Assembly (NCBI GenBank): GCA_964560755.1
Contig: CAZLLY010000004.1
Coordinates: forward strand, 1 to 36,287
Origin: an uncultured Candidatus Saccharibacteria bacterium
GTDB lineage: Bacteria > Patescibacteriota > Saccharimonadia > Saccharimonadales > UBA4665
DNA: 36,287 nucleotides
Direction of reading: 5' to 3'
The notes beneath the pieces are model-generated. The model saw nothing but the letters and a program-made list of their open reading frames with translations, had not been told where the DNA came from and searched no databases. The position numbers and the translations under genes are program-made. Of this stretch, positions 8,317 to 28,196 are shown piece after piece. Positions within the stretch are counted from its first letter, which is position 1. Every line of letters starts with the position of its first letter.

Positions 8317-8323
8317 AACAGAT

Positions 8324-10987: not shown

Positions 10988-11017
10988 AACGCACCCAACT
11001 CTGGTAGAGTAATAGGT

Positions 11018-11437: not shown

Positions 11438-11443
11438 ACAAAT

Positions 11444-12334
11444 ATGTGGAAACGATTTGGCGAGTACCGCGAACGCTGCGCGGCAAAAAAACGTCTGAGT
11501 AGCCTGGCGATATTTCAGATAGTCGAGCAGGAGCTCCGCGTCGAAGTGGCTATCGCCAAACACCGTTGGCGTCAGCACACCGATTTTTCATACCTAGACC
11601 CCTATATCGAGGCCGCCACACAGCGTGCACGGATTGCCGAAAACGCTAACGACACAGATGCTGCGGCTGCAGCCTGGCTACTGGCGCTCATTTTGCGGTC
11701 GCCGCGTGCCGCTCAGGCCCAAATGCAGATGGATAAACACAAACATAGCTTCCACAATAAATCGGCACGCGTCATGGAACTGATCGATTTTAACGATGCC
11801 TATGTTTCGACGGTGCTTGCAATGCCAACAGATCATATCCATGAGTTTAATGCCGAATTCAAACGCATGATCGACTGGTTTTGCAAACGAGTTGGAGCCT
11901 GGGCGCTTTCCAATGAGCAGTTTGAGGCGATCGCACATGGACTGAGCCGCGAGATAGCCGTATACAACGCGGTTTACTCTGCCGGATTTGACGCAAAAAT
12001 GACCAACCGCACCGAGGACGCCTTTGGTATAGACCTACATATCCGCGAGCGAGAGACGAACAAACGCATCAGTGTGGATACCAAAACAAACTCCGCCTTT
12101 CACTACCGACTTATCGAACTTTTCAGGGAGGGCAGGCTTAGCCAAGACGATATCGACCTCGCGGAAAGGCGCGGCTATACCGCCGTCATGAACGGTCACG
12201 GCGAAGAAAAACAGCGCGTTATACTGTGGCGTATCGACCATGAAACCCTCGGCGACATCACCGACTTCGCTTTTGCCAAGACAGACCTACTGCTCGATGA
12301 GCTCCGCGGAATGTTAAACGAATATGGAGAATAG
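11444..12334 (+). CDS. Hypothetical protein; C-terminal half has a candidate PD-(D/E)xK (restriction-endonuclease-fold) motif
   Basis: This 296-aa ORF has an all-helical-looking N-terminal half. It is followed by ...SREIAVYNAV...TEDAFGIDLHIRERETNKRISVDTKT..., i.e. E...(G)ID...(V)DxK spacing like Mrr/restriction-endonuclease cores (nt about 12026-12088). It has no TM segment and no signal peptide. Confidence 0.35.
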   Translation: MWKRFGEYRERCAAKKRLSSLAIFQIVEQELRVEVAIAKHRWRQHTDFSYLDPYIEAATQRARIAENANDTDAAAAAWLLALILRSPRAAQAQMQMDKHKHSFHNKSARVMELIDFNDAYVSTVLAMPTDHIHEFNAEFKRMIDWFCKRVGAWALSNEQFEAIAHGLSREIAVYNAVYSAGFDAKMTNRTEDAFGIDLHIRERETNKRISVDTKTNSAFHYRLIELFREGRLSQDDIDLAERRGYTAVMNGHGEEKQRVILWRIDHETLGDITDFAFAKTDLLLDELRGMLNEYGE

Positions 12335-12335
12335 T

Positions 12336-12614
12336 ATGAACGAACGAGAGGGAACTCACACCATGGATGAAAAATTACAGAAAAAAATTATTCGGCAGCT
12401 CCGCGGCATTCGATTTTGGATGAGTTGTATGTGCATACTCATGCTGGTTGGGTTTGGCATACTGGGCTTCCTGACATTTCAGCTCGTCAGTACCATCCAG
12501 AAAGTCGAGAAACAGTTTTCGACCGTCCAGTCCCAGGCAAGCCAGGCGCTCGACGCCAAAAATAATCTCTGCGAAAACAGCCTCATCGCAAGCACAAGCG
12601 TCTGCAACAACTAG
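12336..12614 (+). CDS. Small single-pass membrane protein, unknown function
   Basis: The ORF track starts this gene at 12324. I prefer the ATG at 12336 because GGAGA lies 5 nt upstream and this start avoids overlap with the previous stop at 12332-12334. There is one TM helix (WMSCMCILMLVGFGILGFLTFQLV), followed by a short polar tail. Confidence 0.55.
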   Translation: MNEREGTHTMDEKLQKKIIRQLRGIRFWMSCMCILMLVGFGILGFLTFQLVSTIQKVEKQFSTVQSQASQALDAKNNLCENSLIASTSVCNN

Positions 12615-12630
12615 ATAGCTGTCTCTCAAA

Positions 12631-12740
12631 ACTCGTCATTCCCGTGAAAATGGGTTAGGTCATGGTTTTACAGTAGTTTATAGCTACTTCAACGATTTCT
12701 GGACCCGCGCGTACGAGGGGGGGTGACGAAGTTTTGGGGT
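12631..12740 (-). repeat. Copy B of the approximately 110-bp multi-hairpin repeat, inverted relative to copy A
   Basis: The reverse complement aligns to 8173-8283 over its full length, at roughly four-fifths identity by eye. Shared blocks include cttcgtcacccccc, gtacgcg, ggtccag, aagtagcta, ctact, taaaac, atgac, ccattttca and gggaatgacg. It starts 17 nt after the stop of the small TM gene. Confidence 0.8.
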
Positions 12741-12782
12741 CGTGAGTCAGACTAGACATACTTGACAATGTTTTTTTGACAT

Positions 12783-12806
12783 GCTACCTTGTAATAGAAA
12801 GGTAGC
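12783..12806. promoter_or_regulatory. Perfect 8-bp inverted repeat GCTACCTT-N8-AAGGTAGC upstream of padR; candidate PadR operator
   Basis: The palindrome ends 11 nt upstream of the PadR ATG at 12817. It is preceded by two TTGACA hexamers (12762-12767 and 12776-11781 should read 12776-12781). There is no T-tract after it, so a terminator is unlikely. Confidence 0.4.
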
Positions 12807-12816
12807 TTAAAGCATC

Positions 12817-13155
12817 ATGGACATAGTATCAACAGATGACAGTTTTGCCTCATTGCGAAAAGGTCTGCTCGAATTCGCTTTACTCCAGGTAATATCGGGG
12901 CAAAAAGTATACGCCGCCGACATACTTGAGCGGCTCAGCAACACACCATTTGCAACGAGCGAAGGTACGTTGTACCCATTGCTCTCCAAACTCAAGCAGG
13001 GCGGTTTAGTTGCGTACGACTGGGCCGAGAGCGAGTCTGGCCCACCACGGAAATATTACCGTTTGACGGCAGCAGGAACCGAACGACTCGCGGGAATGCG
13101 AGACTATTGGAAAGCGCTCGAAACAACATTAGATAGACTAGGAGAAACGTCATGA
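12817..13155 (+). CDS. PadR-family winged-helix transcriptional regulator
   Basis: This is a 112-aa ORF. The stretch LLEFALLQVISGQKVYAADILERLSNTPFATSEGTLYPLLSKLKQGGLVAYDWAESESGPPRKYYRLTAAG is a textbook PadR wHTH. Its stop overlaps the next gene's start (ATGA). Confidence 0.9.
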   Translation: MDIVSTDDSFASLRKGLLEFALLQVISGQKVYAADILERLSNTPFATSEGTLYPLLSKLKQGGLVAYDWAESESGPPRKYYRLTAAGTERLAGMRDYWKALETTLDRLGETS

Positions 13156-14270
13156 AAAAAGTAACAGCCATCAACTTAAACGGGCGAGCCTACCAAGTTG
13201 AGGAGGCGGGTTTTGCAGCGCTGCAAACCTATTTGAAATCTGCCGAGGAAAAACTTGCAAGCAACCCAGACAAGTCCGAGATTTTGGCGGATATCGAGCA
13301 GGCGATCGCCGACAAATGTGACGGTGTGCTGCAACTCGGCAAAAACGTGGTGTCAGCCGAAGCCATCCGAGAGATACTCGATAAAATCGGGCCGATCGAG
13401 GAAACGAGCGACACCAAAAAGTCAGAGAATGCTAGCGATACTGAACCTAAGGTGAAAAAACTATACTTACTGCCCAAAGAGGGCAAGCTGAGCGGTGTTT
13501 GCGCTGGTGTTGCTGCCTATTTTGGTATGGATGTCACCGTCGTCAGGCTGTTTTTTGTGCTACTTTTATTCCTGACACAAGGCTTTATGTTAATCGTCTA
13601 CATCGTCATGGCTATCGCAATGACAGAGGCAAAAACTCCCGAAGAGATCGCGGCGGCGCACGGCCGCCCAATGACCGCACAGGATATCATGAGCCGCGTA
13701 AATGTGCGCGCACCCAGCACGGAAAGCCTAAACCAGGTCGGCTCAACTATCAACCAAATCGGGCGGGTCATCGCCCAAGTTATCGCTATTTCCGCACTTA
13801 TCGTGTGGTCTATCGGCACGGCAGTTCTGGTCTGGTTGCTTTGGGCAATGGCACTTGGCTACATAAAACTGTACGACAATCTCGATTTTCTCAACGGTTG
13901 GCACCAGGGCGTGTTTATCTTGTGTGTATACCTGTTATTTGCATTACCACTACACTGGATATACCGGTCATTTATGGTAATCGGCAAAGGCCGAGGTAGT
14001 GAAGAGCTCTCAAAATCAACGAGGGTAGCTGCGGGCACTAGTATCGCTTTGTGGGCTTTTAGCCTGGTAACAATCGTCGCATTTGTCAGCTTTTATGCGA
14101 CTGATGTTGCGAGCTATGTACGCGCGCACCAAGGCTATATCGACATCGGCAAGAGTAATGTGTGCCTGGACCCAAGTCGTTGCCATCCAGCCGAAACCAT
14201 CGAACAACCTATCCAGCCGATCGAGGTTCAGTATAATACAGACACCACAAGTCCAGTCGAAGTACACTAG
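13152..14270 (+). CDS. PspC-domain membrane protein with an N-terminal DUF1700/HAAS-like helical domain
   Basis: This is a 372-aa ORF. The N-terminal segment FAALQTYLKSAEEKLASNPDKSEILADIEQAIADKCD resembles DUF1700. A PspC domain follows (KLYLLPKEGKLSGVCAGVAAYFGMDVTVVRLFFVLLLFL), then several more TM helices. It is translationally coupled to padR. Confidence 0.8.
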   Translation: MKKVTAINLNGRAYQVEEAGFAALQTYLKSAEEKLASNPDKSEILADIEQAIADKCDGVLQLGKNVVSAEAIREILDKIGPIEETSDTKKSENASDTEPKVKKLYLLPKEGKLSGVCAGVAAYFGMDVTVVRLFFVLLLFLTQGFMLIVYIVMAIAMTEAKTPEEIAAAHGRPMTAQDIMSRVNVRAPSTESLNQVGSTINQIGRVIAQVIAISALIVWSIGTAVLVWLLWAMALGYIKLYDNLDFLNGWHQGVFILCVYLLFALPLHWIYRSFMVIGKGRGSEELSKSTRVAAGTSIALWAFSLVTIVAFVSFYATDVASYVRAHQGYIDIGKSNVCLDPSRCHPAETIEQPIQPIEVQYNTDTTSPVEVH

Positions 14271-14318: not shown

Positions 14319-14446
14319 TGAAATTTTAGTGTTCAGTGGCTACATATCGAGCTATGTGGATCTCACGGATATTTACTGTAAAAAATAAAGGGTAGCGTAG
14401 TAAAATTGTATACATTTTAAGCCTATGACTCACTGCAACCATAAGC

Positions 14447-14452
14447 TATAAT
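14447..14452 (+). promoter_or_regulatory. Candidate -10 box TATAAT 9 nt upstream of the prgI-like ATG
   Basis: The sequence ...ccataagcTATAATaaacaggtaATG has no clear Shine-Dalgarno sequence. Confidence 0.3.
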
Positions 14453-14461
14453 AAACAGGTA

Positions 14462-15667
14462 ATGGCGACATATAAAGTTCTGCAGGATATCGAGGCAGAG
14501 GACAAGCTCGTTGGTCCTCTGACGCTCTGGCAATTTATCTATTTTCTCGGTGCAGCTCTCTGCGTCTATTTGGGTGCAATATCGGTACTAAAAGGTGTGC
14601 CATTCTTTCTAATATTTCTCGCACCTGTTGCGCTGTTTTTAGGGTTTCTGGCAATACCATGGGGCGGCGAGCAGCCAACTGAGGTTTGGGCGCTAGCAAA
14701 ACTCCGGTTTTTCTTGAAGCCTCGCCGACGCGTCTGGGACCAGGCGGGAATGACCGAATTGGTTACCGTAACAGCGCCAAAGCAAATCGAACGTGTTTTT
14801 ACTGATGGGCTCAGCCAAACAGAGGTGAAGAGTCGTTTGCACGCACTTGCAAGCACGCTCGACAGCCGAGGTTGGGCAGTCAAAAACGTCAATATCAATA
14901 TGGTTTCTGCTGCACCATCTTATTCTGCATCTGACAGGCTCATCGATGTGTCTTCGGGTGGTGCTGAAGTTCCTGCCGTCGACATCAAACCAGACGATGA
15001 CATCCTGGACGAGAGCGCAAACCCCATCGCCCACACCTTTGACACCATGATCGATCGGGCGGCAAGCGAATATAGAAAAGCCCTCGTCGACCGAATGAAC
15101 CAGCCGCTTCCTTCGTCGGGACATCAGAGCCCTTCGGCAGGGTTTGGTTTACCTACGAGCGAACCGGTCGCAGAGCAAACACAACCAATTCAAACCCCGA
15201 CCCAAGATGCCTCGCAGCCTACAGCTGCACCCGGTTTTTGGTTCACTTCGCAGCCAACTGCCCAGACCGACACCCCAGCCATAGATACACCCGACCCATC
15301 ATCAACAGATGACACTGCAAGCATCCCCCATGCGGGGGAACCGACCGACGAGGAAAAGGCCTTGCTTTCTCATTTGAAAGATGAAGAGTCGCAACAGACC
15401 GCAGTATACGGCCACTTAAAGACACTGAAAACTCCCGAACAAATCGAGGAAGAAGAGCGTGAGACGGCCGCTCAACAGGCTGAGATAGAGCGACAAAAAC
15501 AAGCCGCAGAGGCCGAGAGACGAGCGGCGGAAGCGGCCATGACATCAGAGAAACAGGCTGCTATAATAAACTTAAGCCGTACCAACGATTTCAATATCGA
15601 CACTATTGCGAGACAAGCCAAACAAGAGTTAGCTAACGATGATGAAGTAGTGGTACCGCTGCGATGA
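14462..15667 (+). CDS. PrgI-family (VirB3-like) T4SS membrane protein with a long low-complexity/coiled-coil C-terminal extension
   Basis: This is a 401-aa ORF. The N-terminus MATYKVLQDIEAEDKLVGPLTLWQFIYFLGAALCVYLG followed by a second TM helix matches my recollection of the PrgI family pattern (YxVPxxIxxEDKIxGxLTxRQ), which is normally about 120-150 aa. Here it is extended by a P/T/Q/S-rich region and an E/A/Q/R coiled coil. It sits immediately upstream of VirB4, as VirB3 genes do. Confidence 0.6.
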   Translation: MATYKVLQDIEAEDKLVGPLTLWQFIYFLGAALCVYLGAISVLKGVPFFLIFLAPVALFLGFLAIPWGGEQPTEVWALAKLRFFLKPRRRVWDQAGMTELVTVTAPKQIERVFTDGLSQTEVKSRLHALASTLDSRGWAVKNVNINMVSAAPSYSASDRLIDVSSGGAEVPAVDIKPDDDILDESANPIAHTFDTMIDRAASEYRKALVDRMNQPLPSSGHQSPSAGFGLPTSEPVAEQTQPIQTPTQDASQPTAAPGFWFTSQPTAQTDTPAIDTPDPSSTDDTASIPHAGEPTDEEKALLSHLKDEESQQTAVYGHLKTLKTPEQIEEEERETAAQQAEIERQKQAAEAERRAAEAAMTSEKQAAIINLSRTNDFNIDTIARQAKQELANDDEVVVPLR

Positions 15668-15704
15668 ATAACCAGATAATGACAGGCGGACAGGTGGAAA
15701 CCGT

Positions 15705-16571
15705 ATGAACCCAAACCAACAGCAATACTCTGGCATGCCAGCACCAGGTACTGGCCCGCAGCTCGCGCCACCTCCCGTGCAGTATGCCGCGCCCCCGACG
15801 GCGGCGCAACCAGGACAGGCACCTCCAACTCCTCAGCCAAAAACCAACCCCAACAGCACACAAAACACACTGCAAATAGCAGAAATACGCGATGGTATCG
15901 TTATTATGAATGACGGGTCATTTCGAGCGGTTGTTATGGCAAAAAGTATCAACTTTGACCTGATGAGCCCCCAAGAACAGGAAAGTGTTGAGTACGCCTA
16001 CCAAGGGTTTTTGAACTCATTGTATTTCCCCGTGCAGATATTTTTGCGGTCACAAAAAGTCGACCTGCAGCCATATATCGAAAAACTAGACAAAATCCGA
16101 ACCGAACATGACAATATGCTGCTCGCGATGCTCATGGAAGACTACATAAACTATATCGACCAGCTCGCTATGCAGACGAATATCATGGATAAGCGGTTTT
16201 ACATTGTGGTACCGTATTTTCCTGTCGCTGGGCCAGAGCTCGCGACGAGTCAGAATAAAAACTTCTTTAGCGGTTTGATGGGACTTTTCCAGAACAAAGA
16301 GAGCCATGTCGTGATAAATGACGCCGAGCTAGAAAAAACCAAAACCGAGCTGCGAAACCGCGTTCAGGCCGTACTTGGTGGTTTGCAGCCGTGTGGCGTT
16401 CAGGGGTTACCACTCGACACCCAGGAGCTCATCGAGCTATATTACGACACGTACAACCCCGACACAGCAACCAGACAACAGCTGAAAAACTTTAACGACC
16501 TTACCGCAGATGTCGTCACAAAGGGGCAAGGAATGGCGCAACAAGCACATTTGCAGAGGGAGATGCAGTAA
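15705..16571 (+). CDS. Protein resembling the detached N-terminal domain of VirB4/TrbE/CagE, preceded by a P/Q-rich segment
   Basis: This is a 288-aa ORF. The first roughly 55 aa are P/Q/A-rich. They are followed by LQIAEIRDGIVIMNDGSFRAVVMAKSINFDLMSPQEQESVEYAYQGFLNSLYFPVQIFLRSQKVDLQPYIEKL...RFYIVVPYFP...LPLDTQELIELYYDTYNP. This follows the pattern I associate with the first roughly 200 aa of VirB4-family proteins. Its stop TAA overlaps the ATG of the VirB4 ATPase ORF (TAATG), and AGGTGGA provides an RBS. Confidence 0.45.
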   Translation: MNPNQQQYSGMPAPGTGPQLAPPPVQYAAPPTAAQPGQAPPTPQPKTNPNSTQNTLQIAEIRDGIVIMNDGSFRAVVMAKSINFDLMSPQEQESVEYAYQGFLNSLYFPVQIFLRSQKVDLQPYIEKLDKIRTEHDNMLLAMLMEDYINYIDQLAMQTNIMDKRFYIVVPYFPVAGPELATSQNKNFFSGLMGLFQNKESHVVINDAELEKTKTELRNRVQAVLGGLQPCGVQGLPLDTQELIELYYDTYNPDTATRQQLKNFNDLTADVVTKGQGMAQQAHLQREMQ

Positions 16572-18484
16572 TGGCCAAGCAAAAACTCGACCCAGTGGCA
16601 GTAGCCCAACAGCAGCAAGCCCGCGAACAAGCAGAGGTTGCGGAGGCATTTCGTAAAGGCGTCACCGCCCTTCGAGATTTCATCGCACCAAGTAGCATCG
16701 ACTTTTTTGGCAACTATTTCCAGATTGGCACCCGTTTTGCCCGCACTTACTACGTCTACGGCTATCCAAGGCAAATTTTTACCGGTTGGCTCAGCGGGCT
16801 CGTCAACCTCGACGAAGTCATCGACATTTCTATTTATGTATATCCTGTTGAGAGCCAGGTCGTGCTCGACAACCTACGCAAAAAAGTAACTCAGCTCGAG
16901 GCCGGTCTACAGATCGATGCAGAAAAAGGCCGCGTGCGCGACCCCGCCAAACAGGCTGCCATCCTCGATGCCGAAGAAATGCGCGACAAACTACAGGTCG
17001 GAGAAGAGCGATTCTTCCGTTTTGGGCTGTACTTTACCATCTACGGAAACAGCCTCGAGGAGCTCGAGTTCATCACACACAAGGTTGAGAGTATGCTGGG
17101 CCAACAACTTGTTTACAGCAAGCCAGCGACCAGCCAACAAGAGCAGGGACTAAACAGTGTCGTCCCTCAGATGACCGACCAATTACAGATTAGACGCAAC
17201 ATGAGCACCGGCGCTATTAGTACAAGTTTTCCGTTTACAAGCGCCGACCTGACCCAAGAAAACGGCATTTTGTACGGCATAAATATGCATAACAGTGGCC
17301 TCGTCATCTTTGACCGGTTTACCCTAGAAAACGGCAACTCGGTTGTTTTTGCAAAGTCTGGCGCGGGTAAATCTTTCACCGTAAAACTCGAGGCGCTCCG
17401 TAGCCTGATGTTTGGCACTGAGATAATCATCATCGACCCAGAAAATGAATACGAGCGGATGTGCGACGCAGTCGGTGGTGCATATGTTCGCCTGAGTCTC
17501 AACAGCACGACGCGCATAAACCCCTTCGATCTGCCAAAAGTCGTCGATACCGAAGAGGCAGATAACGCGCTTCGATCAAACCTTATCACCCTACACGGGC
17601 TACTCAGGCTCATGATGGGCGGCGCACAGGCACAGATGATGGGCGGTAATTCGATGGTTATGCCTGCGCTTGCTCCAAGTGAAGAGGCCGACCTCGACGA
17701 GGCACTCATAAACACCTACGGCAAAGCGGGGATTACACAGGACCCTCTGACACACACCGGCATGCCGCCAACCATTAGCGACCTCTATGACACCCTCCTG
17801 CATATGGGAGGAAATGGGCCGCAACTCGCTCAGCGCCTCAGAAAATACACCAGCGGTACGTTTGCGGGTATATTCAGCCAGCAAAGCAATATAGACATCA
17901 ATAATCCACTCGTTGTTTTTAACGTACGCGACCTCGAGGATGAGCTACGCCCCGTTGCGATGTATATTGTCCTAAACTACATCTGGAACAAGACAAAGAG
18001 CGACCAAAAGCGCCGCATCCTGATCGTCGACGAGGCTTGGCAGCTCATGAAGTACGAAGATAGCGCAAATTTCCTGTTTAGTTTGGCAAAACGCGCTCGC
18101 AAATATAACCTCGGTATTACCACCATCACCCAAGACGTCGAAGACTTTATGGGTAGCCGAATGGGTCGAGCCATCGTCGCTAATGCCAGCATGCAAATTC
18201 TACTCAAGCAATCACCAAGCGCCATCGACGTATTGTCAGACGTATTCAAGCTAACAAGCGAGGAAAAAAAGCGTCTGGCGCAGTTCCCGGTCGGCCAAGG
18301 CTTGTTTTTTGCTGGGCAAAATCACGTCCATATTCAAGTCATCGCCAGCCCAACCGAAACCAGCCTTATTACGACTAACCCTGGGCAGATTCAGGCTATG
18401 CAGCAAGGTGACCTCAACCAGCCGCAGGGCACCATAGACTTAAACAACCAGCTTACGCCTGGTAGTATGAATAATTTCTCATGA
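16571..18484 (+). CDS. virB4: VirB4-family T4SS ATPase (middle domain + AAA ATPase domain)
   Basis: This is a 637-aa ORF. The stretch FIAPSSIDFFGNYFQIGTRFARTYYVYGYPRQIFTGWLSGLVNLDEVIDISIYVYP is typical of the VirB4 middle region. Walker A is FAKSGAGKSFTVK and Walker B is RRILIVDEAWQLM. At 637 aa it is shorter than typical VirB4 proteins of about 780-830 aa. Confidence 0.85.
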   Translation: MAKQKLDPVAVAQQQQAREQAEVAEAFRKGVTALRDFIAPSSIDFFGNYFQIGTRFARTYYVYGYPRQIFTGWLSGLVNLDEVIDISIYVYPVESQVVLDNLRKKVTQLEAGLQIDAEKGRVRDPAKQAAILDAEEMRDKLQVGEERFFRFGLYFTIYGNSLEELEFITHKVESMLGQQLVYSKPATSQQEQGLNSVVPQMTDQLQIRRNMSTGAISTSFPFTSADLTQENGILYGINMHNSGLVIFDRFTLENGNSVVFAKSGAGKSFTVKLEALRSLMFGTEIIIIDPENEYERMCDAVGGAYVRLSLNSTTRINPFDLPKVVDTEEADNALRSNLITLHGLLRLMMGGAQAQMMGGNSMVMPALAPSEEADLDEALINTYGKAGITQDPLTHTGMPPTISDLYDTLLHMGGNGPQLAQRLRKYTSGTFAGIFSQQSNIDINNPLVVFNVRDLEDELRPVAMYIVLNYIWNKTKSDQKRRILIVDEAWQLMKYEDSANFLFSLAKRARKYNLGITTITQDVEDFMGSRMGRAIVANASMQILLKQSPSAIDVLSDVFKLTSEEKKRLAQFPVGQGLFFAGQNHVHIQVIASPTETSLITTNPGQIQAMQQGDLNQPQGTIDLNNQLTPGSMNNFS

Positions 18485-18494
18485 GGAGTGTAGT

Positions 18495-21446
18495 GTGTCT
18501 ACGTTGTTAGATAATGATACAGACAGACAGAACGGGGTGTACGACAGCGACGCCGACATCGCTCGCCGCGAGCGTGGTATAAGCGCCGCCCAAGACGGAG
18601 CGCCGACTGATGCAATTGACATGTCTGCGTTCGAGCAAGACTTCGCGGGAAACAACGGCAGCGACAACGGTAGCAGTAACGGAGGAGGCGAAGATCCAGA
18701 AAAAAAAGCGGCTGAGGGATATGATTCTGCAGAATCCCCCTGGAAAACAAGTCTGGACGGTTCGCAGCCCGGAAAAAAACAGTCAAAAATAAAGATGTTC
18801 ATGAAAAAGCGGACAACATCCTTCGTTGCCGGCACCGTACTCTTTGGGATCATACTCGGCGGCGGAGCAGTAATACCAACACTAGAATCGTTTCACCTCA
18901 TACACTATGCCGAGACTCTCAAAAAGATACTTGCGCCAAGAACCGTACAAAAAAATACAAAAATTACAAAGCTGTATCGATGGATTCGTAACCCAGATGA
19001 CGTTGGTCGAACTCGGCTTACCATACTCCAAAACAGAAACCACCCAAAGCTTATTAAAAGCCTAACAGCTAGTGGGATCACTGTAGTTTCCGATGGAAGA
19101 TTAGGATATATGAGAGCGATCTCAATCGATCCCAGGAAACTCCCCAAATATAAAGGGCTTACCATGGAGGCGCTAAAATATCGGCTCGCCGAAGATTATG
19201 GCATTCCAAGATCGAAAATCACCGGTTCGGAAGGGGGGAACGCACGAGCCCTCATTGACTCTGTTCCGCAAAAAATCCAGAGGCAGATTATTGCAGATAT
19301 GGTCGAGTCAAGCGGGAAAGGTAAGGTGGGAGCGTTTTTCATGCAAAGACATCTTCGCAACTACTATAAAGTACCGACAATGTTTCACCCATTTAGAAGG
19401 CTTGAGGCCAAGCTAGAAGGCAAGATAAACACATGGCTTATAAATGCAGAGAAAAAACGGCAAAAAGTCCTCTCGGAGCGCAGGGAGCAAGCTAGGCAAA
19501 AACTAAAAGAGTTTCGAGCCAACCATGGTAGTGCGCTCAGAACGGTTGGTGCAAGCTTAATGATAGTAGGGTTTGCGTGTATGGTTCGAGATTTTTCAGC
19601 AGATATATCCGAACTAAACAGGGCAAACTTTATTGAGCCGGGTGCGATGTCCGGTAACGATGCCCTCGGTATGGGGGACCAGATTGAGGCAGATACCGAC
19701 CTTAATGACTTAAACGTTACCGCAGCTGTGTCGAATTTTTATGATTCAAAAGGGTTATCCCCACTTGACGCACCAGAGTTCAAAACACTGAACGGAACCT
19801 ACAACTATACTTCACTCAATACCGGTGACACCACCTACGACGATGCATATACTTCAGGCAGGAAACTACTCGTAAACGGATTCAGCTATGACAGCCCCAT
19901 AAAAGCAGCTGCTCGGTTTGTCAACGAAAAACTCGCCGGTGAGGCAATATGTAACCCTGTGGCACAAGCAGTCCAGCTCGCCATCGGAACCGCCCTATTT
20001 GTTGTTTCCGCACCCTCTGGTGGTGCGCTCGTTATCGGCGTTGCAAAAGGAGTTGTAGCCGGAGCAATTATAGGGGTCGGCATGAATGCCGCTGCACAAT
20101 GGGTAGCTGGTGAAGTGCCCGATATTACCCCTCACAAGGGCCCCTTGGGGGGTGCCCAGGACGTATACGGTCTCATCACCTCCTCTAATGCGGTAAATGC
20201 CTCGGGGGGTGGCAGTTTTCTGTCTACTCAGGCAACGACCGACCTCATGTACGCCGCCGCACAAAATGAAGCGCGTGAAATAAAATCTCAAAGCATTGCT
20301 AGTCGGCTATTTAACCCCAAAAGCTACAGCTCCATCTCGGGGAAAATTATAGATGGTATTAGCCCAAGTAGTACAAAAAATCTTGCCACACTCTCAAGCT
20401 CGTTTGCATCAATAGGCAGTACTCTCATTTCCTTGCCATCAAAACTATTTAGTGCTAGAGCTAGTGCGGCAGACTCCACAAACTATATCAGCGCCCTGAA
20501 TACTAGACTCGTGGGATTATCGCCAACCGTTGAGGCTATCGAAAACCCCGACAAGAGCGCCAATGAGCTAGCGGGGATATTTAAGTCGGCAGATCCGATT
20601 ACCCTCAACAACTACAAGACGAAAACAATGACCTGTACTGGCCGCGATATAGGCTTCCAGACAGACGCATCAACCGGGACAGAGTACCTCGACGCAAAAT
20701 ACTCTACGCTGCCAGACTTATATTCAGACACCTATGCGACCGCTGGGTGTGCTGACGACGGGGACAAAACATGGGTTATGATAAAAGATTTTATCGACAG
20801 TGTGCAGGCTTCAGATGAACTGTATTGCCTCGATACTTACATAAAGGATTCCGAAGCGTGCGACCACGGGGGGATGGGTTCGAACGCGTCTACTGTCGCA
20901 CCATCTCCTGCACCCGAGGCCGGATCTGGCGCCATAGGACCGGCAACGCTCCCAAGGGCGCAGGGTAGTTGGGGTGGGTATATAAACGGCAAACTAGGTG
21001 GGTCGGGGTCAGAAGACTATAAAAAAGTCTTGAAACCCATATCATCTGTCGGTCTTAAAGGTTGCAGCGGAAGCATCAGCGTGCCATATCTGCATCCTAA
21101 CGCCGCAGTGGCCGTAAAAGCACTCGATGACGCGTACACCAAGAAGTTTGGCTATGGACTCATATTTGAAAGCTGTTATCGAACGTACGATCAACAACAA
21201 ACGGCCTGGAGTAGGTATCAAAGTGGGGGAAATAAAGCCGCTAGACCAGGAACCTCAAACCACGGTTGGGGCCTAGCGATAGACGTTGCCATGACAAAAT
21301 ATGGTGGCTTTAGCTCACCAAATTACAAATGGTTGGCAGAAAACGGACCAAGCTTTGGGTTTAGAACGGGCGTTGTGAGCGGCGAACCATGGCACATCGA
21401 GTACGCCCGTCCAGTATCAGCAGAAAGCGAGACCAGTAGCTTATGA
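18495..21446 (+). CDS. Large membrane protein with a C-terminal M15B/VanY-type D-Ala-D-Ala carboxypeptidase-family domain
   Basis: This 983-aa ORF starts at a GTG, with GAGGAG 5 nt upstream. The N-terminus is acidic and G/S/N-rich. TM helices include TTSFVAGTVLFGIILGGGAVI, LRTVGASLMIVGFACMV and a glycine-rich hydrophobic block, IGTALFVVSAPSGGALVIGVAKGVVAGAIIGVGM. The C-terminus (nt about 21057-21420) reads SCYRTYDQQ...ARPGTSNHGWGLAIDV...GEPWHIEY, matching the SxxRxxxxQ / SxHxxGxAxD / EPWH pattern of VanY-family zinc peptidases. Confidence 0.75.
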   Translation: MSTLLDNDTDRQNGVYDSDADIARRERGISAAQDGAPTDAIDMSAFEQDFAGNNGSDNGSSNGGGEDPEKKAAEGYDSAESPWKTSLDGSQPGKKQSKIKMFMKKRTTSFVAGTVLFGIILGGGAVIPTLESFHLIHYAETLKKILAPRTVQKNTKITKLYRWIRNPDDVGRTRLTILQNRNHPKLIKSLTASGITVVSDGRLGYMRAISIDPRKLPKYKGLTMEALKYRLAEDYGIPRSKITGSEGGNARALIDSVPQKIQRQIIADMVESSGKGKVGAFFMQRHLRNYYKVPTMFHPFRRLEAKLEGKINTWLINAEKKRQKVLSERREQARQKLKEFRANHGSALRTVGASLMIVGFACMVRDFSADISELNRANFIEPGAMSGNDALGMGDQIEADTDLNDLNVTAAVSNFYDSKGLSPLDAPEFKTLNGTYNYTSLNTGDTTYDDAYTSGRKLLVNGFSYDSPIKAAARFVNEKLAGEAICNPVAQAVQLAIGTALFVVSAPSGGALVIGVAKGVVAGAIIGVGMNAAAQWVAGEVPDITPHKGPLGGAQDVYGLITSSNAVNASGGGSFLSTQATTDLMYAAAQNEAREIKSQSIASRLFNPKSYSSISGKIIDGISPSSTKNLATLSSSFASIGSTLISLPSKLFSARASAADSTNYISALNTRLVGLSPTVEAIENPDKSANELAGIFKSADPITLNNYKTKTMTCTGRDIGFQTDASTGTEYLDAKYSTLPDLYSDTYATAGCADDGDKTWVMIKDFIDSVQASDELYCLDTYIKDSEACDHGGMGSNASTVAPSPAPEAGSGAIGPATLPRAQGSWGGYINGKLGGSGSEDYKKVLKPISSVGLKGCSGSISVPYLHPNAAVAVKALDDAYTKKFGYGLIFESCYRTYDQQQTAWSRYQSGGNKAARPGTSNHGWGLAIDVAMTKYGGFSSPNYKWLAENGPSFGFRTGVVSGEPWHIEYARPVSAESETSSL

Positions 21447-22771
21447 GTATTTCCCGCGGAAGCTTGTTGATCTCGGCTCGGTTCTCATTAGTTTTATTCC
21501 TGTGTTTGATAGTATTACTTTCACCATTATCGAGTGTCGTATATGCGCTTTCAGACGAACAATACAATGTCATAAGTAAAGGCATATATGCGTTCGACGT
21601 CGATATACCAAGCTGCGTCACATCGACCGATCAAGCATATATCGACCAGCTGGGGTCTTCGGACACAGGCGTTCCGTCTGCAGATGTCAAAGAATGGGTT
21701 GAAAAATATGGTAAACAGGCCTACGAGACTGGCCAGAAATATCACCTTCCTTACGTTGCAATTCTTGCTCAGGCAGCGCTCGAATCGGGATGGGGAAGGT
21801 CTGGGCTCACGAGAAAAGCAAACAATTTCTTCGGAATCAAGGCGGGAAGTTCTTGGGATGGTGAGGTTGTGTATATGGACACCGGAGAACAAACTAAGAC
21901 AGGTGAATCATACACTCAAAAAGGCGCCGCTTTTCGTAAGTACCCAACAGCGCAAGATGGATTTGACGGGTATGGGAAGTTCATAACCGAGAATAGCCGC
22001 TACAAAAAAGCACTTGCTTATCCAAACGACCCTGCAAAATATATCTCTGAGATAAAGGCGGCAGGATATGCAACCGATGTTAAATATGTCAGTAAAAACG
22101 TCAGCCTCCAACAAAAAATTGAGTCACATATTGTCTCACTGAATAACCCTTCGTTACCTGCGTCAAAAAACGTAGTGTTTTCCACGCCTAACCCAGTTGC
22201 TTCTGGGGGTACCGACGGTACAAGTACCCCTACGGATAGTTGTTCGGTCACTAACCCCGAAACACCTGGTGGGGCAGTAACGATCGTAGGTGATAAAGCA
22301 TTTCCCCTCGCAGTCTCAAGCAGAAAAGAAGTGTTGAACCCCAAATCATACAGCAACAGCACTGTGCACGTAACGTACAAGGCGAATGACATTCTCGCAA
22401 AAAAAGGAACGAGGGTTGTTGCGATGGTTGGGGGCAAAATAAGGGTTTCTCCGAACACCGACGCGTGTAGCACACGGTTCGTACAGATATATAACCCGAC
22501 TAGCAATATTACCGTCACAAACATGCACCTTAGCGGTGATATAGCCGTGAAGTCAGGGGAGACTGTTACGGCCGGTGCTGCGATCGGCTACATAACCCCA
22601 GGAGTTAACAAGCCTGGGTATAGTGGGGGTTGTGGCGTTTCACATCTACATATCGACGCCGTAAAGGGGCAAAAGCGCCCCAGTTGCTCAAGAATGGGAT
22701 GTAGTAACTCGTCGGTTTTCGTCAGCCTAGGCGACGAACTCACTAAACTCTATAACGCTCTGCCGAAATAG
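21443..22771 (+). CDS. Secreted bifunctional cell-wall hydrolase: N-acetylglucosaminidase (FlgJ/LytD-type) domain + M23/LytM-like domain
   Basis: This 442-aa ORF overlaps the previous gene by 4 nt (ATGA). It starts with a signal/anchor segment (LISARFSLVLFLCLIVLLSPLSSVVYA). The glucosaminidase motif is AILAQAALESGWGRSGLTRKANNFFGIKAG (nt about 21690-22100). The C-terminal M23-like region is GTRVVAMVGGKI...VKSGETVTAGAAIGYI...GGCGVSHLHID (nt about 22295-22735). The expected first HxxxD zinc motif appears as YKAND. Confidence 0.75.
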   Translation: MSISRGSLLISARFSLVLFLCLIVLLSPLSSVVYALSDEQYNVISKGIYAFDVDIPSCVTSTDQAYIDQLGSSDTGVPSADVKEWVEKYGKQAYETGQKYHLPYVAILAQAALESGWGRSGLTRKANNFFGIKAGSSWDGEVVYMDTGEQTKTGESYTQKGAAFRKYPTAQDGFDGYGKFITENSRYKKALAYPNDPAKYISEIKAAGYATDVKYVSKNVSLQQKIESHIVSLNNPSLPASKNVVFSTPNPVASGGTDGTSTPTDSCSVTNPETPGGAVTIVGDKAFPLAVSSRKEVLNPKSYSNSTVHVTYKANDILAKKGTRVVAMVGGKIRVSPNTDACSTRFVQIYNPTSNITVTNMHLSGDIAVKSGETVTAGAAIGYITPGVNKPGYSGGCGVSHLHIDAVKGQKRPSCSRMGCSNSSVFVSLGDELTKLYNALPK

Positions 22772-22780
22772 GAGGTACCC

Positions 22781-24187
22781 ATGCAAAATTCATACTACAA
22801 CGCTATGAGTCAAAGAAAAATTACCAGTATCCTCAAATTTTTTGGTGCTATTGTAATACTTATCATCGTTGTTGTAACTCTATTTTCTATCCAAACAAGT
22901 TCATCACCAACTATTACGAAACTACCTATCGGCCATGATGTTTCTGCGGATTTAAATGATAATGAAGTGGTGTCGTTCAACGGTGTTAGTTTTGCAAAAT
23001 ATGATTTGAATACCAACAAATCTACGGTTTTGTTGTCCGGATCTTTGTGGCCGAAGTTTGGTAGTATTAACTGGGCAGGGGATTCAGGTGCGTTTGTTAC
23101 GGTCAACGGATCAATCTATGCAACTCCTTTTGAACAATTCGCCGACCAATATGATCTTTATAGTTATAGTAATGATGATCTAGCGAATAACTTCCTGTGG
23201 TATATCGATTTTACTTCCGGGTCTGTACGCCTCATCAGCAACCAAACAGTGCTTGAAAGGTCATATTATTATGACGCGAAAACCGAATCAGCATATTTTA
23301 GCGAAGTAGCCGAAGCTGAATCAGAGGGCGGAGAACCATCGCTTCGAACTGTTTTGAAAAAATATACGGTGCGCGACATGTCGTTAACATCTACTCTAAC
23401 AGTGCCTTTGACGTCCAATATATCCATCAATCCCTGTGGGGAAACTCAGCTATGTGTATATGGAGAAAAGTTAGATGGCGTATACGAACTAGGCCTGGTT
23501 TCCGATACAGCGTACACTGCGAAAAAAACCGTAGTTGGTAGGGTAGTCACCTCGTCAACCCCAGATATTTTCTATCTACTAACAGCCCTTTCCTCGAACG
23601 ATGAGATGCAGTTATCCGAAGACAGTGCTGGTATTGTTGGAAACTACTCAGTGTCTCAATATATCCTGAGTACAAATAATGAGATGAAGCTCCCCATCAC
23701 TATTGATTCATTAGACCAAATAGTTGCTTTTCCAAATGGAGAGTCGCACATATTCACAAAACTTGGTGCTACCGGAACTGAAACCATTAACCGCTCAAAA
23801 ACACTACTTGGCATAACACGGACTACCACCAAAGAGAACGTGGGCCTTTCACCAACATTTATGTCTAAGTTCGTGGAGACCCCTGAAGGGCGCGGTTTGT
23901 TGGTGCACGATATAACCGGTGATTATTATTATATCGGAAGTGGTGATGTCAAAATTGCACAAAGTACCGCCGTTGAATCGACCATTACGTCGTGTACTAA
24001 TACATATGGTTTGGGGTTAGTAAATAATAGCGGCTCCTATATCGTACGGTTTGTCGAGTCGGGCTCAACACAGTCTGATATTTCTGCATTTAGCACTTGC
24101 GTAAATAAAACACCCGAAACGTCATTACAGGCTAGCCTTGATATCATACTATCTGCGTACACAGATGGGCCTGCATTAAACATTTAG
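22781..24187 (+). CDS. N-terminally anchored extracytoplasmic protein, unknown function (AT-rich gene)
   Basis: This 468-aa ORF has a strong RBS (AGGAGG 6 nt upstream). It has one N-terminal TM helix (ILKFFGAIVILIIVVVTLFSI), and the rest is rich in S/T/N/Y and beta-strand-like. GC is visibly lower than in neighbouring genes: one 60-nt line I counted was 32% GC, against 58% for a polA line. It is the last gene of the T4SS-like operon. Confidence 0.6.
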   Translation: MQNSYYNAMSQRKITSILKFFGAIVILIIVVVTLFSIQTSSSPTITKLPIGHDVSADLNDNEVVSFNGVSFAKYDLNTNKSTVLLSGSLWPKFGSINWAGDSGAFVTVNGSIYATPFEQFADQYDLYSYSNDDLANNFLWYIDFTSGSVRLISNQTVLERSYYYDAKTESAYFSEVAEAESEGGEPSLRTVLKKYTVRDMSLTSTLTVPLTSNISINPCGETQLCVYGEKLDGVYELGLVSDTAYTAKKTVVGRVVTSSTPDIFYLLTALSSNDEMQLSEDSAGIVGNYSVSQYILSTNNEMKLPITIDSLDQIVAFPNGESHIFTKLGATGTETINRSKTLLGITRTTTKENVGLSPTFMSKFVETPEGRGLLVHDITGDYYYIGSGDVKIAQSTAVESTITSCTNTYGLGLVNNSGSYIVRFVESGSTQSDISAFSTCVNKTPETSLQASLDIILSAYTDGPALNI

Positions 24188-25233
24188 CCTAGCGGCAGTA
24201 TTGTACTATCAGTAAAGTGTTTTATAACCACGTCGGCGTCGGTGGTGGTTAAAAATGTTTGGTGCGATTGTAGGTAACTGGTTAGGGCTCTACGCCGCGC
24301 ACCGTCTAGCTCGCTAAATACGTCGTCGAGCAGTAACACGGGCGTTATACCCCTAGCTTTTTCAATAAACTCAAGTTCGATGATTTTTAACCCTAAAATG
24401 ACCGTTCTCGTCTCGCCCCGACTCGCAGCATCAGTGGCGGCATGCCCGTTCATAGACACTGCGACGTCCTCGCGGTGGGGTCCGTATGCCGTGAAACCAC
24501 GCGCCACGTCACGGTCGATCGCAGTTTCGAGAGTATGTAACAAGGTAGATTCATATGATTCGGGTAAAAATTGCGATTTATATGAGATAGACACCTCTGT
24601 ATCCGAATGAGACAGGGTTTTATAGAGTTCATATAGCTTTGGAGCTATTTCTGCTATTAGTTCGCCCCGCGAGCGTGATATGACCGCTCCCAGTTCACTC
24701 AGACGTAAATCCCACGGAAATAATTCTTCGCGACTGGTGCGGCCGCGCTTGAGCAAAGCATTGCGCTGTGCAAGCACGCGGCGGTAATTGCGACGAAAAC
24801 TCGCGTAACCCGGTTTGGTTTGCTCGAGTATGTCGTCGAGATATTGGCGTCGAAACTCTGGGGCACCGTGCAGTAGTTGTAAGTGGTTTGGCTCAAATAA
24901 AACCACTGGAAGTGTATGGTCGTGCGTTAGGCGGAGATATTTTTTTTCATCAAACTCAAATGATTTTTGCTGTTTTGGCTCAGTGACTATTTTAACCGTA
25001 CGAGTCGAATCTACGTCAGTCCTTGCGTCCAAACGCATCCACGGCGCACCAAAAGCTATGAGCTCGGCGTCATTCACCCTATACGACCCGCCGACCAACA
25101 CAACCTGTATCGCCTCGAGTAAGTTCGTCTTCCCGCTGCCGTTCGGCCCAACGATGATATTCACCCCTTCACCAAACTCAAAGCTTGCGTCGATGTACGA
25201 GCGATAATTTTGTAGCCTAATATCACACAGCAT
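24184..25233 (-). CDS. recF: DNA replication and repair protein RecF
   Basis: This is a 349-aa ORF. It has an N-terminal Walker A motif (NIIVGPNGSGKTNLLEAI), a C-terminal Walker B/D-loop (VLLLDDVFSELD), and the conserved position downstream of dnaN. Confidence 0.95.
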   Translation of the reverse strand: MLCDIRLQNYRSYIDASFEFGEGVNIIVGPNGSGKTNLLEAIQVVLVGGSYRVNDAELIAFGAPWMRLDARTDVDSTRTVKIVTEPKQQKSFEFDEKKYLRLTHDHTLPVVLFEPNHLQLLHGAPEFRRQYLDDILEQTKPGYASFRRNYRRVLAQRNALLKRGRTSREELFPWDLRLSELGAVISRSRGELIAEIAPKLYELYKTLSHSDTEVSISYKSQFLPESYESTLLHTLETAIDRDVARGFTAYGPHREDVAVSMNGHAATDAASRGETRTVILGLKIIELEFIEKARGITPVLLLDDVFSELDGARRRALTSYLQSHQTFLTTTDADVVIKHFTDSTILPLG

Positions 25234-25260
25234 TGTTTATAGTATACGCAGTCTTTATGT

Positions 25261-25306
25261 TTTTACCTGGGATTATATATTAACAGAGGTGAGTTTTACT
25301 TCATTT
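25261..25306 (+). repeat. 46-bp intergenic motif, copy 2
   Basis: The sequence is ttttacctgggattatatattaacagaggtgagttttacttcattt. It fills the dnaN-recF spacer, and its last 2 nt overlap the dnaN stop codon. It differs from the reverse complement of copy 3 at 2 of 46 positions. Confidence 0.85.
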
Positions 25307-26396
25307 AGCTTTTTAGTGGCATGATAATGTGTTGGTAGTCGGTATTTGCAGGGTCAGATAGTAACACTGGGTCAACTTTGCCGTTAAAACTTATCGTAAC
25401 TTCTTTGCCATTCATAACCTGCAGAGCATCATGTAAATACCGTGAGTTTAGGGTTATCGAACCGTTTCCTTTTGCGACAACTTTTGCGGTTGCGTTGTTT
25501 TCACCGAGCTGCGATGCAACGGCGCGGATCCAGATACTTTCACTCGCCTCGTCAACACTAAGGACGATACTACCCGCACTCTCCCGGGCAAACAGGCTTG
25601 TCACTTTGACGATACCAACGAGTTCTGACCGCGGAATCGTCGCAGTCGTCTCAAATGAGCTTGGTATAAGTTTGCGATAGTCTGGGTACCGACCTTCTAT
25701 TAGGCGAGCAACAAGCTCGACATCTCCCGCGATAAACTGGACTTGTTGGTCGTCATAAGTAATAACAACGTCGCCTGAAAAATCGTTTATTATACGTAAA
25801 ACATCATGGAGTGCAGTCGCAGGAACAAGTAGGGAAATGTCTTCGTCGGTCGTAACGAGACGTTTTTCAGCCAACCGATAACTATCGGTAGTCGCAATAT
25901 AGAGTGCTCCATCGACAGAGTGTAGTAACACGCCAGTTAAAACCGGGCGACTATCGTCGTTCGAGGCGGCAATAAGCACTTGCTGCAAGCCTTGTTTGAG
26001 TAGTGGGGCAGAAACGGTCAGCTTTTTACCTTTTTCTATCGCAGGCATAACAGGAAATTCTTCAGCGCTCACCCCGTTAATAACCGATTTATATTGGTCG
26101 GTGGTTATTTTTAGGCGCTGTTCGTCTTGCTCTATTTCGATAACACCACTCGGTAGCCCCGTAACTAGGTCTTGGATTAGTTTTGCAGGGACCGTTATGG
26201 AGCCGTCTTTTTGGACTTGTGCGCCGATATGGCTTTTGATCGCAATATCTAGGTTGGTAGCCGCGATAGAAAGCTGATTTTCCTGAATAGAGAGTAGTAC
26301 GTTGCTAAGTATCGGTAGAGTACTCCTTGTACTAGCTACTCGTGCAACATAATTTAGTGCTTTTGCTAGATTTTCCTGAGTAACTTTCAGTTTCAT
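25305..26396 (-). CDS. dnaN: DNA polymerase III beta sliding clamp
   Basis: This is a 363-aa ORF. The N-terminus MKLKVTQENLAKALNYVARVASTRSTLPILSNVLL is typical of DnaN. The three-domain length and the position between dnaA and recF also fit. Confidence 0.95.
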   Translation of the reverse strand: MKLKVTQENLAKALNYVARVASTRSTLPILSNVLLSIQENQLSIAATNLDIAIKSHIGAQVQKDGSITVPAKLIQDLVTGLPSGVIEIEQDEQRLKITTDQYKSVINGVSAEEFPVMPAIEKGKKLTVSAPLLKQGLQQVLIAASNDDSRPVLTGVLLHSVDGALYIATTDSYRLAEKRLVTTDEDISLLVPATALHDVLRIINDFSGDVVITYDDQQVQFIAGDVELVARLIEGRYPDYRKLIPSSFETTATIPRSELVGIVKVTSLFARESAGSIVLSVDEASESIWIRAVASQLGENNATAKVVAKGNGSITLNSRYLHDALQVMNGKEVTISFNGKVDPVLLSDPANTDYQHIIMPLKS

Positions 26397-26653
26397 ATCA
26401 AGTTATCCCCTCTGTCTTATTACAATTTAGTTTTCTTAAAAAGGAGTAGTTATTATAGGTGGTGTGGAAAGAGTGGAAAACAGTAAAATAACAGATTGAA
26501 ATAGTAGTGTAGGTTGTGTAGAAGGATAGGGTTAAGTTGTTTACGATGCTGCGGAAAAGTCTAGGTTTGTACACAGTGTATTTCTGGGGCCACAGACTAG
26601 GCTTAAAGTATCCACTAGTAAGGGGGGTGTTATACACAGCTACCCCACAAGCA
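26397..26653. other. dnaA-dnaN spacer with an AT-rich tract and degenerate DnaA boxes (possible second oriC module)
   Basis: An AT-rich tract lies at 26411-26460. The near-consensus box TTATACACA at 26630-26638 has 1 mismatch to TTATCCACA. Weaker 2-mismatch boxes lie at 26463-26471, 26472-26480 and 26608-26616. Confidence 0.4.
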
Positions 26654-28033: not shown

Positions 28034-28056
28034 ACCCCTCCAACGTTTTAGTAAGC

Positions 28057-28196
28057 TGTGAATAACTATAGCGGTAGTGCGCAAAGTTTTCCACAGTAGC
28101 TTTTACAACTCCCTACAAACAGAGTCTCTGTATTTTATCCACAGCCAACAGTCCAATCTGTTAAGCTGTGGAAAAGACTTGGCATCGGGTGGATAA
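28057..28196. other. oriC candidate: cluster of five DnaA boxes between dnaA and rpmH
   Basis: There is one perfect TTATCCACA at 28135-28143. The other boxes each have one mismatch: TTATTCACA (reverse complement, 28057-28065), TTTTCCACA (28087-28095), TTTTCCACA (reverse complement, 28167-28175) and TTATCCACC (reverse complement, 28188-28196). dnaA and rpmH diverge from this spacer. Confidence 0.7.

Follow-up and report, generated by a model that had tools for sequence, protein, structure and literature searches.

The window analysed here is the whole 36,287-nucleotide stretch of contig CAZLLY010000004.1, from an uncultured Candidatus Saccharibacteria bacterium of the order Saccharimonadales. 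Beside its replication origin lies a real type IV secretion system (T4SS) operon of six genes. An earlier note on this DNA, made from the letters alone, had placed six co-directional genes at 14462-24187, and its open reading frame (ORF) coordinates and intergenic gaps (37, -1, 10, -4 and 9 nt) match exactly. In the list below, the three genes that follow virB4 are labelled +1, +2 and +3.

14462-15667, plus strand: PrgI/VirB3-like protein, 401 aa (PF12666 profile match)
15705-16571, plus strand: TrsD-like protein, 288 aa (NCBIfam TrsD match, VirB4 N-domain alignment)
16571-18484, plus strand: VirB4 ATPase, 637 aa (NF045971, PF19044, PF12846, DUF87)
18495-21446, plus strand: "+1", membrane scaffold with a C-terminal M15 (VanY) peptidase head, 983 aa (PF02557)
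21443-22771, plus strand: "+2", GH73 glucosaminidase and M23 cell-wall hydrolase, secreted or anchored, 442 aa (PF01832, PF01551)
22781-24187, plus strand: "+3", membrane-anchored beta-propeller protein, 468 aa (structure model, Foldseek)

Profile searches, together with an AlphaFold2 (AF2) model, bear out the six protein identities that the earlier note had proposed (PrgI/VirB3-like, VirB4 N-domain-like, VirB4, M15, glucosaminidase plus M23, and anchored surface protein), and T4SS homology was found for both the PrgI-like and the VirB4-like ORFs. The PrgI protein matches PF12666 with 33.5 bits against a cutoff of 27 (E 6.4e-8) and has two N-terminal transmembrane helices, at residues 17-35 and 47-65, followed by a long acidic, coiled C-terminal tail. 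VirB4 matches NF045971 (conju_CD1110) with 367.8 bits against a cutoff of 325, carries the Walker A motif AKSGAGKS and the Walker B motif ILIVDE at residues 483-488, and has Thermoanaerobacter VirB4 (4AG5, E 2e-49) as its closest solved structure, with TrwK following at 1e-6. As a VirB4 with intact Walker motifs it belongs to the monoderm (MPF-FATA-related) type, and it is the only P-loop T4SS ATPase in the window. The T4SS-DNA_transf and CD1115 models gave noise-level matches, and these fell on VirB4 itself.

The 288-aa protein between PrgI and VirB4 matches the NCBIfam TrsD model NF041427 at E 1.6e-6, below cutoff, with no match in a Pfam scan or in a phmmer search against PDB. Its orthologs in the two closest contigs (L081 and L082) carry the precomputed assignment PF26593, TraC-like; no literature was found on this family or on PF19590, which is taken up below. 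Its alignments to VirB4 models are confined to the N-terminal part of each (2-116 of 752 positions in CD1110, 99-233 of 894 in VirB4_plasma and 19-131 of 792 in TIGR00929), and the 637-aa VirB4 covers the same full-length models only from about position 170-290 on. Because the model coverage is complementary and the two ORFs overlap by one base, they are best read as a VirB4 that has apparently been split into an N-domain protein and the remainder.

The +1 protein ends in a VanY domain (PF02557) at residues 865-971 (nt ~21087-21407; 52.3 bits against a cutoff of 25), where the motifs for zinc binding and catalysis in M15 peptidases occur as H923-x6-D930 and E964-x2-H967. Its N-terminal ~800-850 aa form a conserved membrane scaffold of a family that jackhmmer searches recovered in 59 of 60 loci; a profile search of the scaffold against PDB sequences gave noise only, and tblastn against 72,556 plasmids gave no match. 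The +2 protein combines a Glucosaminidase domain (PF01832, 114.2 bits against 30.2) with a Peptidase_M23 domain (PF01551, 31.5 bits against 28.7). The closest structures to its GH73 domain are those of FlgJ (E 1e-15), and it carries the catalytic-glutamate motif ALESGWG at residues 112-118 and an HLH motif at residues 401-403. The operon encodes candidate VirB1-type wall hydrolases with catalytic residues present, the first M23 motif being non-canonical. Hydropathy gives the hydrolases N-terminal hydrophobic segments, and they are therefore probably Sec-exported.

Pfam scans of the +3 protein were without a match. An AF2 model built on a 62-sequence alignment from a full HMMER search (predicted local distance difference test, pLDDT, 89.4; predicted TM-score, pTM, 0.88) gives it an N-terminal transmembrane anchor, a beta-propeller ectodomain and a small C-terminal alpha/beta domain, and Foldseek returned WD40, TolB and lectin propellers with target TM-scores of up to 0.59. 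A single-sequence AF2 model of the same protein was unusable (pLDDT 36). An exhaustive HMMER search placed it in a family of at least 119 divergent members, almost all between 450 and 510 aa in length, with four nearly invariant cysteines (C219, C225, C405 and C440). The label of anchored surface protein that the sixth gene had been given is correct, and the fold is modelled as a beta-propeller. The stop codon of this gene overlaps that of recF by 4 nt.

Further parts of the machine lie near the left end of the window, upstream of the operon:

2-511, minus strand: first VirB2-like T4SS pilin gene, 5' part (170 of 249 codons; the contig ends within the gene) (PF18895, T4SS_pilin)
647-4033, plus strand: VirB6-like polytopic membrane protein, 1128 aa (precomputed PF19590 TrbL_3, sub-threshold NF046089)

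The truncated pilin ORF, divergent from the VirB6-like gene, scores 30 bits on PF18895, whose cutoff is 26.6. The same organism is represented by a second assembly, L083, which is 99.98% identical over window positions 1-4346, extends the window leftward by 5.4 kb and holds the complete 249-aa pilin gene plus four more (94, 129, 132 and 136 aa), all five above the PF18895 cutoff. Among 52 relatives surveyed for pilin arrays, 49 have one to nine minus-strand pilin genes preceding the VirB6-like gene. Beyond the pilins, the left extension encodes PGA_cap, HSP20, ComF-like phosphoribosyltransferase and HIT proteins. At L083 770-1444 the ComF-like phosphoribosyltransferase gene adjoins HSP20, and the PGA_cap gene lies between HSP20 and the pilin array.

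Hydropathy analysis indicates that the 1128-aa protein begins with a signal peptide and a ~450-aa ectodomain, has some six transmembrane helices at residues 497-722 and ends in a large hydrophilic domain. It matches NF046089, the CD3337/EF1877 mobilome membrane protein model, at E 1.4e-6, below cutoff, and PF04610 (TrbL/VirB6) matches 4 of its 34 homologs. A homolog lies just upstream of PrgI, adjacent or with at most one gene between, in 58 other species-level loci found by tblastn. Three Pfam scans of the protein, whole and in sub-regions, were negative and did not reproduce the precomputed TrbL_3 match, a discrepancy at 647-4033 that a bias filter or differing versions may account for. A profile of the family searched against PDB sequences gave noise only, tblastn of its transmembrane region against the 72,556 plasmids gave no match, and no link was established between the VirB6-like or +1 proteins and named plasmid proteins such as TraF or TrsF. 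Since the Pfam scans were negative, the assignment of this protein as a putative VirB6-like subunit is made with moderate confidence. Word-index searches had returned only the query for both this protein and +3; their standing as orphans was dropped when tblastn and exhaustive searches found relatives.

The full machine therefore comprises pilins, a VirB6-like protein, VirB3, TrsD, VirB4, a scaffold-peptidase, a hydrolase and a propeller protein. The earlier note had recognised only the membrane and energising core of a monoderm T4SS. The monoderm core stands, with 4AG5 the best structural match, and the extent was underestimated, the VirB6-like and pilin genes having been overlooked. The cluster is split into two pieces, 2-4033 and 14462-24187, by ~10.4 kb of housekeeping genes (4054-14270) that encode a 343-aa unknown ORF, a P-type ATPase, polA, a NUDIX protein, a 296-aa unknown ORF, PadR and PspC, the last lying nearest the operon. 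This split is limited to one lineage, made up of the window and four of the compared loci (L001, L002, L081 and L082).

Directly downstream of the operon, on the opposite strand, are recF, dnaN and dnaA (24184-28084), and past dnaA follow yidC, jag/khpB, cofD and a 975-aa GDSL hydrolase gene. Profile scans of all large ORFs of the 36-kb window detected no relaxase, VirD4/TcpA-type coupling protein, integrase or plasmid replication gene, in agreement with the earlier note, and none of the genes called on the 5.4-kb left extension encodes a relaxase, coupling protein or integrase. The window contains no tRNA gene, and the GC content of the operon is like that of its flanks, with no compositional island.

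The comparison with relatives covered 80 species-level Saccharimonadales loci, with the domains of the +1 and +2 proteins surveyed in 60. PrgI, TrsD and VirB4 are adjacent in 71-79 of the 80 loci, and recF-dnaN-dnaA lies 5-8 kb downstream in 51-60 of them. This arrangement, recurring in about 60 of 80 species-level genomes, is not a product of chance, and it upholds the earlier description of the operon as chromosomal, near dnaA and no remnant of an integrative and conjugative element (ICE) or plasmid. Relatives of VirB4 at 83-96% identity number in the hundreds, nearly all from metagenome-assembled Saccharimonadales. Median identity to the window protein is 86% for VirB4 (80 species), 78% for TrsD (79 loci) and 47% for PrgI (71 loci), and the corresponding values for the replication proteins are 63% for DnaA, 62% for DnaN and 57% for RecF. 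The higher identity of VirB4 than of these three proteins, together with the synteny, points to strong purifying selection on a core gene. The locus is a core chromosomal one, strongly constrained and vertically conserved, and not a mobile element.

The genes after virB4 behave differently. Their sizes and positions are conserved, with a protein of ~800-1300 aa, then one of ~400-800 aa, then one or two of 150-530 aa, and their domains are replaced from species to species. On one conserved scaffold, the C-terminal heads of +1 span at least 11 Pfam families: VanY in 11 species, M23 in 5, Exo_endo_phos in 3, CHAP and GDSL lipase in 2 each, and, as single cases, alginate lyase, phage lysozyme, two amidases, GDPD and a beta-lactamase-like domain. 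At +2 the domains are Phage_lysozyme2 (32), CHAP (8), M23 (7), GDSL (6) and NlpC/P60 (5), with C39-like, SLT, GH73, Amidase_3 and GH3 domains also found. The last operon positions encode PEGA, Ig-like or carboxypeptidase-regulatory-like binding domains, or proteins of no recognisable family. The replacement is seen even at close range. In the closest contigs, L081 and L082, VirB4 is 96% identical to that of the window, DnaN 87-88% and PolA 79-80%, whereas +1 is just 27-28% identical, the +2 position is taken by a Phage_lysozyme2 protein that has no relation to the GH73 and M23 protein of the window, and two unrelated genes of ~220 aa stand in place of +3. The best relative of the window's +2 (53%) occurs in a more distant lineage (L003), and the +3 family recurs at the last operon position in three other loci (L051, L063 and L068). 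This mosaic of relatives in distant lineages suggests that cassettes have been exchanged laterally between lineages. No description of the contrast between motor and downstream genes was found in the literature, in a search that was not exhaustive, and neither this contrast nor the conserved +1 scaffold with swappable heads is described in the available portion of a recent survey of Patescibacteria systems (PMC12102498).

The closest experimentally studied counterpart is the locus SEML1_0001-0019 of Southlakia epibionticum ML1 (PMC10633639). It starts with dnaA, dnaN and recF and continues with two exported binding-domain proteins, a multi-domain lysozyme/cysteine-peptidase protein and a 1114-aa protein that ends in a DD-peptidase domain. 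VirB4, a 294-aa protein and PrgI follow, then a pair of large VirB6-like proteins flanking an NTF2-like one, and finally six pilins. Transposon sequencing (Tn-seq) by Wang and colleagues in 2023 found nearly all T4SS genes of this bacterium to be essential, the NTF2-like SEML1_0012 being the clear exception (PMC10633639). SEML1_0004-0019 and the window cluster match one to one by position, the window being the mirror image with the same order relative to dnaA-dnaN-recF, and the six-gene operon is the positional counterpart of SEML1_0010-0004. The window PrgI is thus the positional ortholog of SEML1_0010 and the TrsD-like protein that of SEML1_0009, both essential. The +1 protein has an architecture like that of SEML1_0007 (essential, 1114 aa, with an M15-fold DD-peptidase domain at 951-1105), and +2 stands at the position of SEML1_0006, also essential, which has two lysozyme-like domains and a cysteine peptidase where the window has GH73 and M23. 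Relaxase and coupling protein are lacking in both loci. The two differ in that the window cluster is split by housekeeping genes and has one VirB6-like gene and no NTF2/VirB8-like gene, as against two VirB6-like genes plus the NTF2-like gene, five pilins as against six, and a single anchored beta-propeller protein at the last position in place of PEGA/Ig-like and prealbumin-like proteins. The ComF-like/HSP20 border of the left extension parallels SEML1_0020 and SEML1_0021, so the far border of the cluster is conserved too.

Among plasmid systems, pGO1/pSK41 (trs) and pIP501 (tra), of the MPF-FATA type, likewise have a separate TrsD/TraD protein beside VirB4 (TrsE/TraE), are monoderm and lack an outer-membrane core. 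The trs/tra operons of pGO1 and pIP501 run VirB3, TrsD, VirB4, membrane protein and two-domain hydrolase, parallel to the order in the window. Those systems are plasmid-borne, transfer DNA and include a relaxase, a coupling protein (TrsK/TraJ), an oriT and a surface adhesin, whereas the window yielded neither a relaxase nor a coupling protein and does have VirB2 pilins, which are absent from the trs/tra systems. The Ptl system of Bordetella pertussis and the VirB system of Brucella also operate without a VirD4-type coupling protein, and differ from the window system in being diderm with VirB7/9/10 outer-membrane cores. As reported in the Patescibacteria survey by Quinonero-Coronel et al. (2025), TrsD is specific to the pGO1/pIP501 subclass of monoderm conjugation systems, and Patescibacteria have a VirB4 clade related to MPF-FATA in which relaxases are nearly absent, TrsD and PrgI lie next to virB4, and VirB6, arrays of VirB2-like pilins and proximity to dnaA/dnaN are found (PMC12102498). 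The window shares all of these traits, and no essential difference from the surveyed systems emerged. Earlier, McLean et al. (2020) had drawn attention to the region, both in TM7x and throughout the phylum, and likened its small-protein array to ptx/ptl; this Saccharibacterial "secreted array" is now recognised, from the survey and from the PF18895 scans, as VirB2-like pilins and not toxin subunits (PMC12102498). The relaxase-less, dnaA-proximal machine has therefore been described already, and the window is a further example of a known system. The earlier note's statement that the architecture of such systems is poorly defined is out of date (architecture in PMC12102498, review in PMC12857230), and its hypothesis of a host-interaction machine is correct and already published.

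We consider it likely that the locus encodes a non-conjugative conduit at the host interface, that is, a chromosomal, vertically inherited T4SS of Saccharimonadia that derives from MPF-FATA (pGO1/pIP501-like) conjugation machinery and works without relaxase or coupling protein. VirB4, with TrsD as its detached N-domain and PrgI as a tether, would energise a VirB6-based membrane channel and the assembly of a VirB2-type pilus. The Sec-exported hydrolases would cut peptidoglycan so that the structure could cross the cell's own wall and probably breach that of the host, and the resulting machine would serve as a non-conjugative conduit where epibiont and host make contact. By analogy with the Tn-seq results for the S. 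epibionticum orthologs, it would be essential for epibiotic growth, which agrees with the host-interaction role proposed in the earlier note (PMC10633639). The Saccharibacterial T4SS is the first T4SS reported to be essential for its own bacterium, and identifying its cargo is a central problem in the biology of ultrasmall epibiotic bacteria. The window adds no new kind of system; what it offers is a well-resolved case from the environment, together with a comparative pattern to guide experiments.

Several points weigh against this interpretation. The VirB6 assignment, made with moderate confidence, leans on sub-threshold or precomputed matches. No VirB8-like (NTF2) domain was detected by sequence in the window, and the one bitopic candidate that was modelled, +3, came out as a beta-propeller and not as an NTF2-like fold. 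The first zinc motif of the M23 domain of +2 is non-canonical (H309-x6-D316). As the window is one 36-kb contig, the genome could encode a coupling protein or a relaxase at some other site, and VirD4 homologs far from virB4 are common in Patescibacteria (PMC12102498). That the hydrolases act on the host wall as well as on the cell's own is an inference from their variability. A 2024 perspective called the role of the T4SS "completely unknown" (PMC11665869), a view shared by a 2025 review (PMC12857230).

Within the conduit reading, the last three genes seem to make up the end of the machine that faces the host and determines specificity. The turnover of hydrolases and the presence of heads for polymers other than peptidoglycan argue for a target that lies at least partly in the host envelope. 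We regard it as possible, though less likely than not, that the three genes after virB4 form a rapidly exchanged "drill-head" cassette that fits an otherwise invariant T4SS to the envelope chemistry of a particular host and so sets host range. The contrast between a conserved motor, in which VirB4 and TrsD are better conserved than DnaA, and replaced envelope genes makes these three genes candidates for tests of host specificity.

What the conduit carries, and in which direction, separates the remaining explanations. The likelihoods given below for uptake, effector delivery and remodelling of the cell's own wall overlap within the conduit reading, as these roles are not mutually exclusive; effector delivery, signal exchange and the uptake of nutrients or nucleic acids have all been proposed for the Saccharibacterial T4SS (PMC12857230, PMC11665869). 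The likeliest of them is an uptake machine like ComB or Ced, which would draw host nucleic acids, nucleotides or further building blocks into a cell that cannot make them; we regard this as possible but somewhat unlikely. Helicobacter pylori ComB and archaeal Ced are relaxase-independent uptake systems and, like other imports that need no type IV coupling protein (T4CP), provide a precedent for nutrient or DNA import (PMC11665869). The ComF-like phosphoribosyltransferase gene near the pilin array is also consistent with uptake, and a 2026 preprint on a Patescibacterium that consumes host RNA describes tubular structures at the interface, which may be T4SS pili. VirB4 weakly matches archaeal CedB (E 5.5e-16) and CedD (E 4.9e-7), far below the cutoffs; these matches represent generic P-loop similarity, and past the VirB4-type ATPase the window has no specific homology to ComB or Ced. 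Moreover, ComB depends on ComEC. In S. epibionticum this competence channel is dispensable, unlike the essential T4SS (PMC12857230), so any import would be ComEC-independent.

A second explanation holds that the hydrolases only remodel the cell's own wall, the classical VirB1 role, and that their variability is neutral drift under weak constraint, without any part in host specificity. VirB1-like two-domain hydrolases are indeed standard in Gram-positive T4SSs (PMC12102498), and the GH73 domain of +2 most resembles that of the assembly hydrolase FlgJ. The chemistry of the cell's own wall, however, would be expected to stay constant from one relative to the next, and yet these genes are replaced between loci whose VirB4 proteins are 96% identical; some of the heads (GDSL lipase, GDPD and alginate lyase) are for non-peptidoglycan polymers, and each ortholog is essential in S. 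epibionticum (PMC10633639). Confinement of the hydrolases to the cell's own wall is on balance unlikely.

Delivery of effectors or toxins into the host bacterium, in the manner of the bacteria-killing T4SS of Xanthomonas and with the hydrolases as secreted weapons, has been proposed in the literature (PMC10633639, PMC11665869, McLean et al. 2020) and would account for three cell-wall-cleaving domains in one operon and for polymorphic lytic, lipase and nuclease-like heads across species. The N-terminal hydrophobic or signal segments of the hydrolases and the placement of the M15 head on a polytopic scaffold nevertheless fit Sec-exported structural or accessory parts better, and known T4SSs of the effector-delivering type need VirD4 and a recognition domain, neither of which was found in the window. 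We therefore hold this explanation to be improbable.

That the locus is a remnant or functional part of an ICE or plasmid, with relaxase, coupling protein and integrase outside the window, is very improbable: although every recognisable part is homologous to conjugation proteins, the window is a single contig and VirD4 homologs do occur elsewhere in many Patescibacteria genomes, the same recF-dnaN-dnaA site is kept in about 60 of 80 species with VirB4 better conserved than DnaA, neither the window nor its extension yielded an integrase, relaxase or T4CP and no tRNA gene or compositional island was seen, the Patescibacteria dataset of the survey holds just 109 relaxases, of which only 15 lie near virB4 (PMC12102498), and the orthologous locus is, unlike conjugation genes, essential for growth (PMC10633639).

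Some minor observations concern the start of the operon and its surroundings. One promoter-like site precedes PrgI:

14425-14452, plus strand: promoter-like site ATGACT-16-TATAAT, ending 10 nt before the PrgI ATG; a weak lead only

Promoter and terminator scans of the region returned no more sites than shuffled sequence. Between the promoter-like site and the PrgI ATG (14425-14462) there is no obvious Shine-Dalgarno sequence, which hints that the PrgI transcript may be leaderless or nearly so. Directly upstream of PrgI, at 12817-14270, genes for a PadR regulator and a PspC-domain membrane protein are found in the window and in L081 and L082; the pair could be an envelope-stress sensor beside the operon, and it lies outside the cluster in most species. 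A 112-aa ORF in the dnaN/dnaA interval (26398-26736, minus strand) was rejected as a conserved gene after a single weak match in the loci of the 80 relatives. Near the right end, two tandem paralogs at 34500-35099 and 35178-35600 (199 and 140 aa) share 60% identity across 126 residues; both are membrane-anchored at the N terminus, and neither belongs to a known family. The 975-aa GDSL lipase/acylhydrolase protein at 31569-34496 has hydrophobic segments at both ends and is perhaps one more surface enzyme, encoded near the origin, that acts on the envelope.

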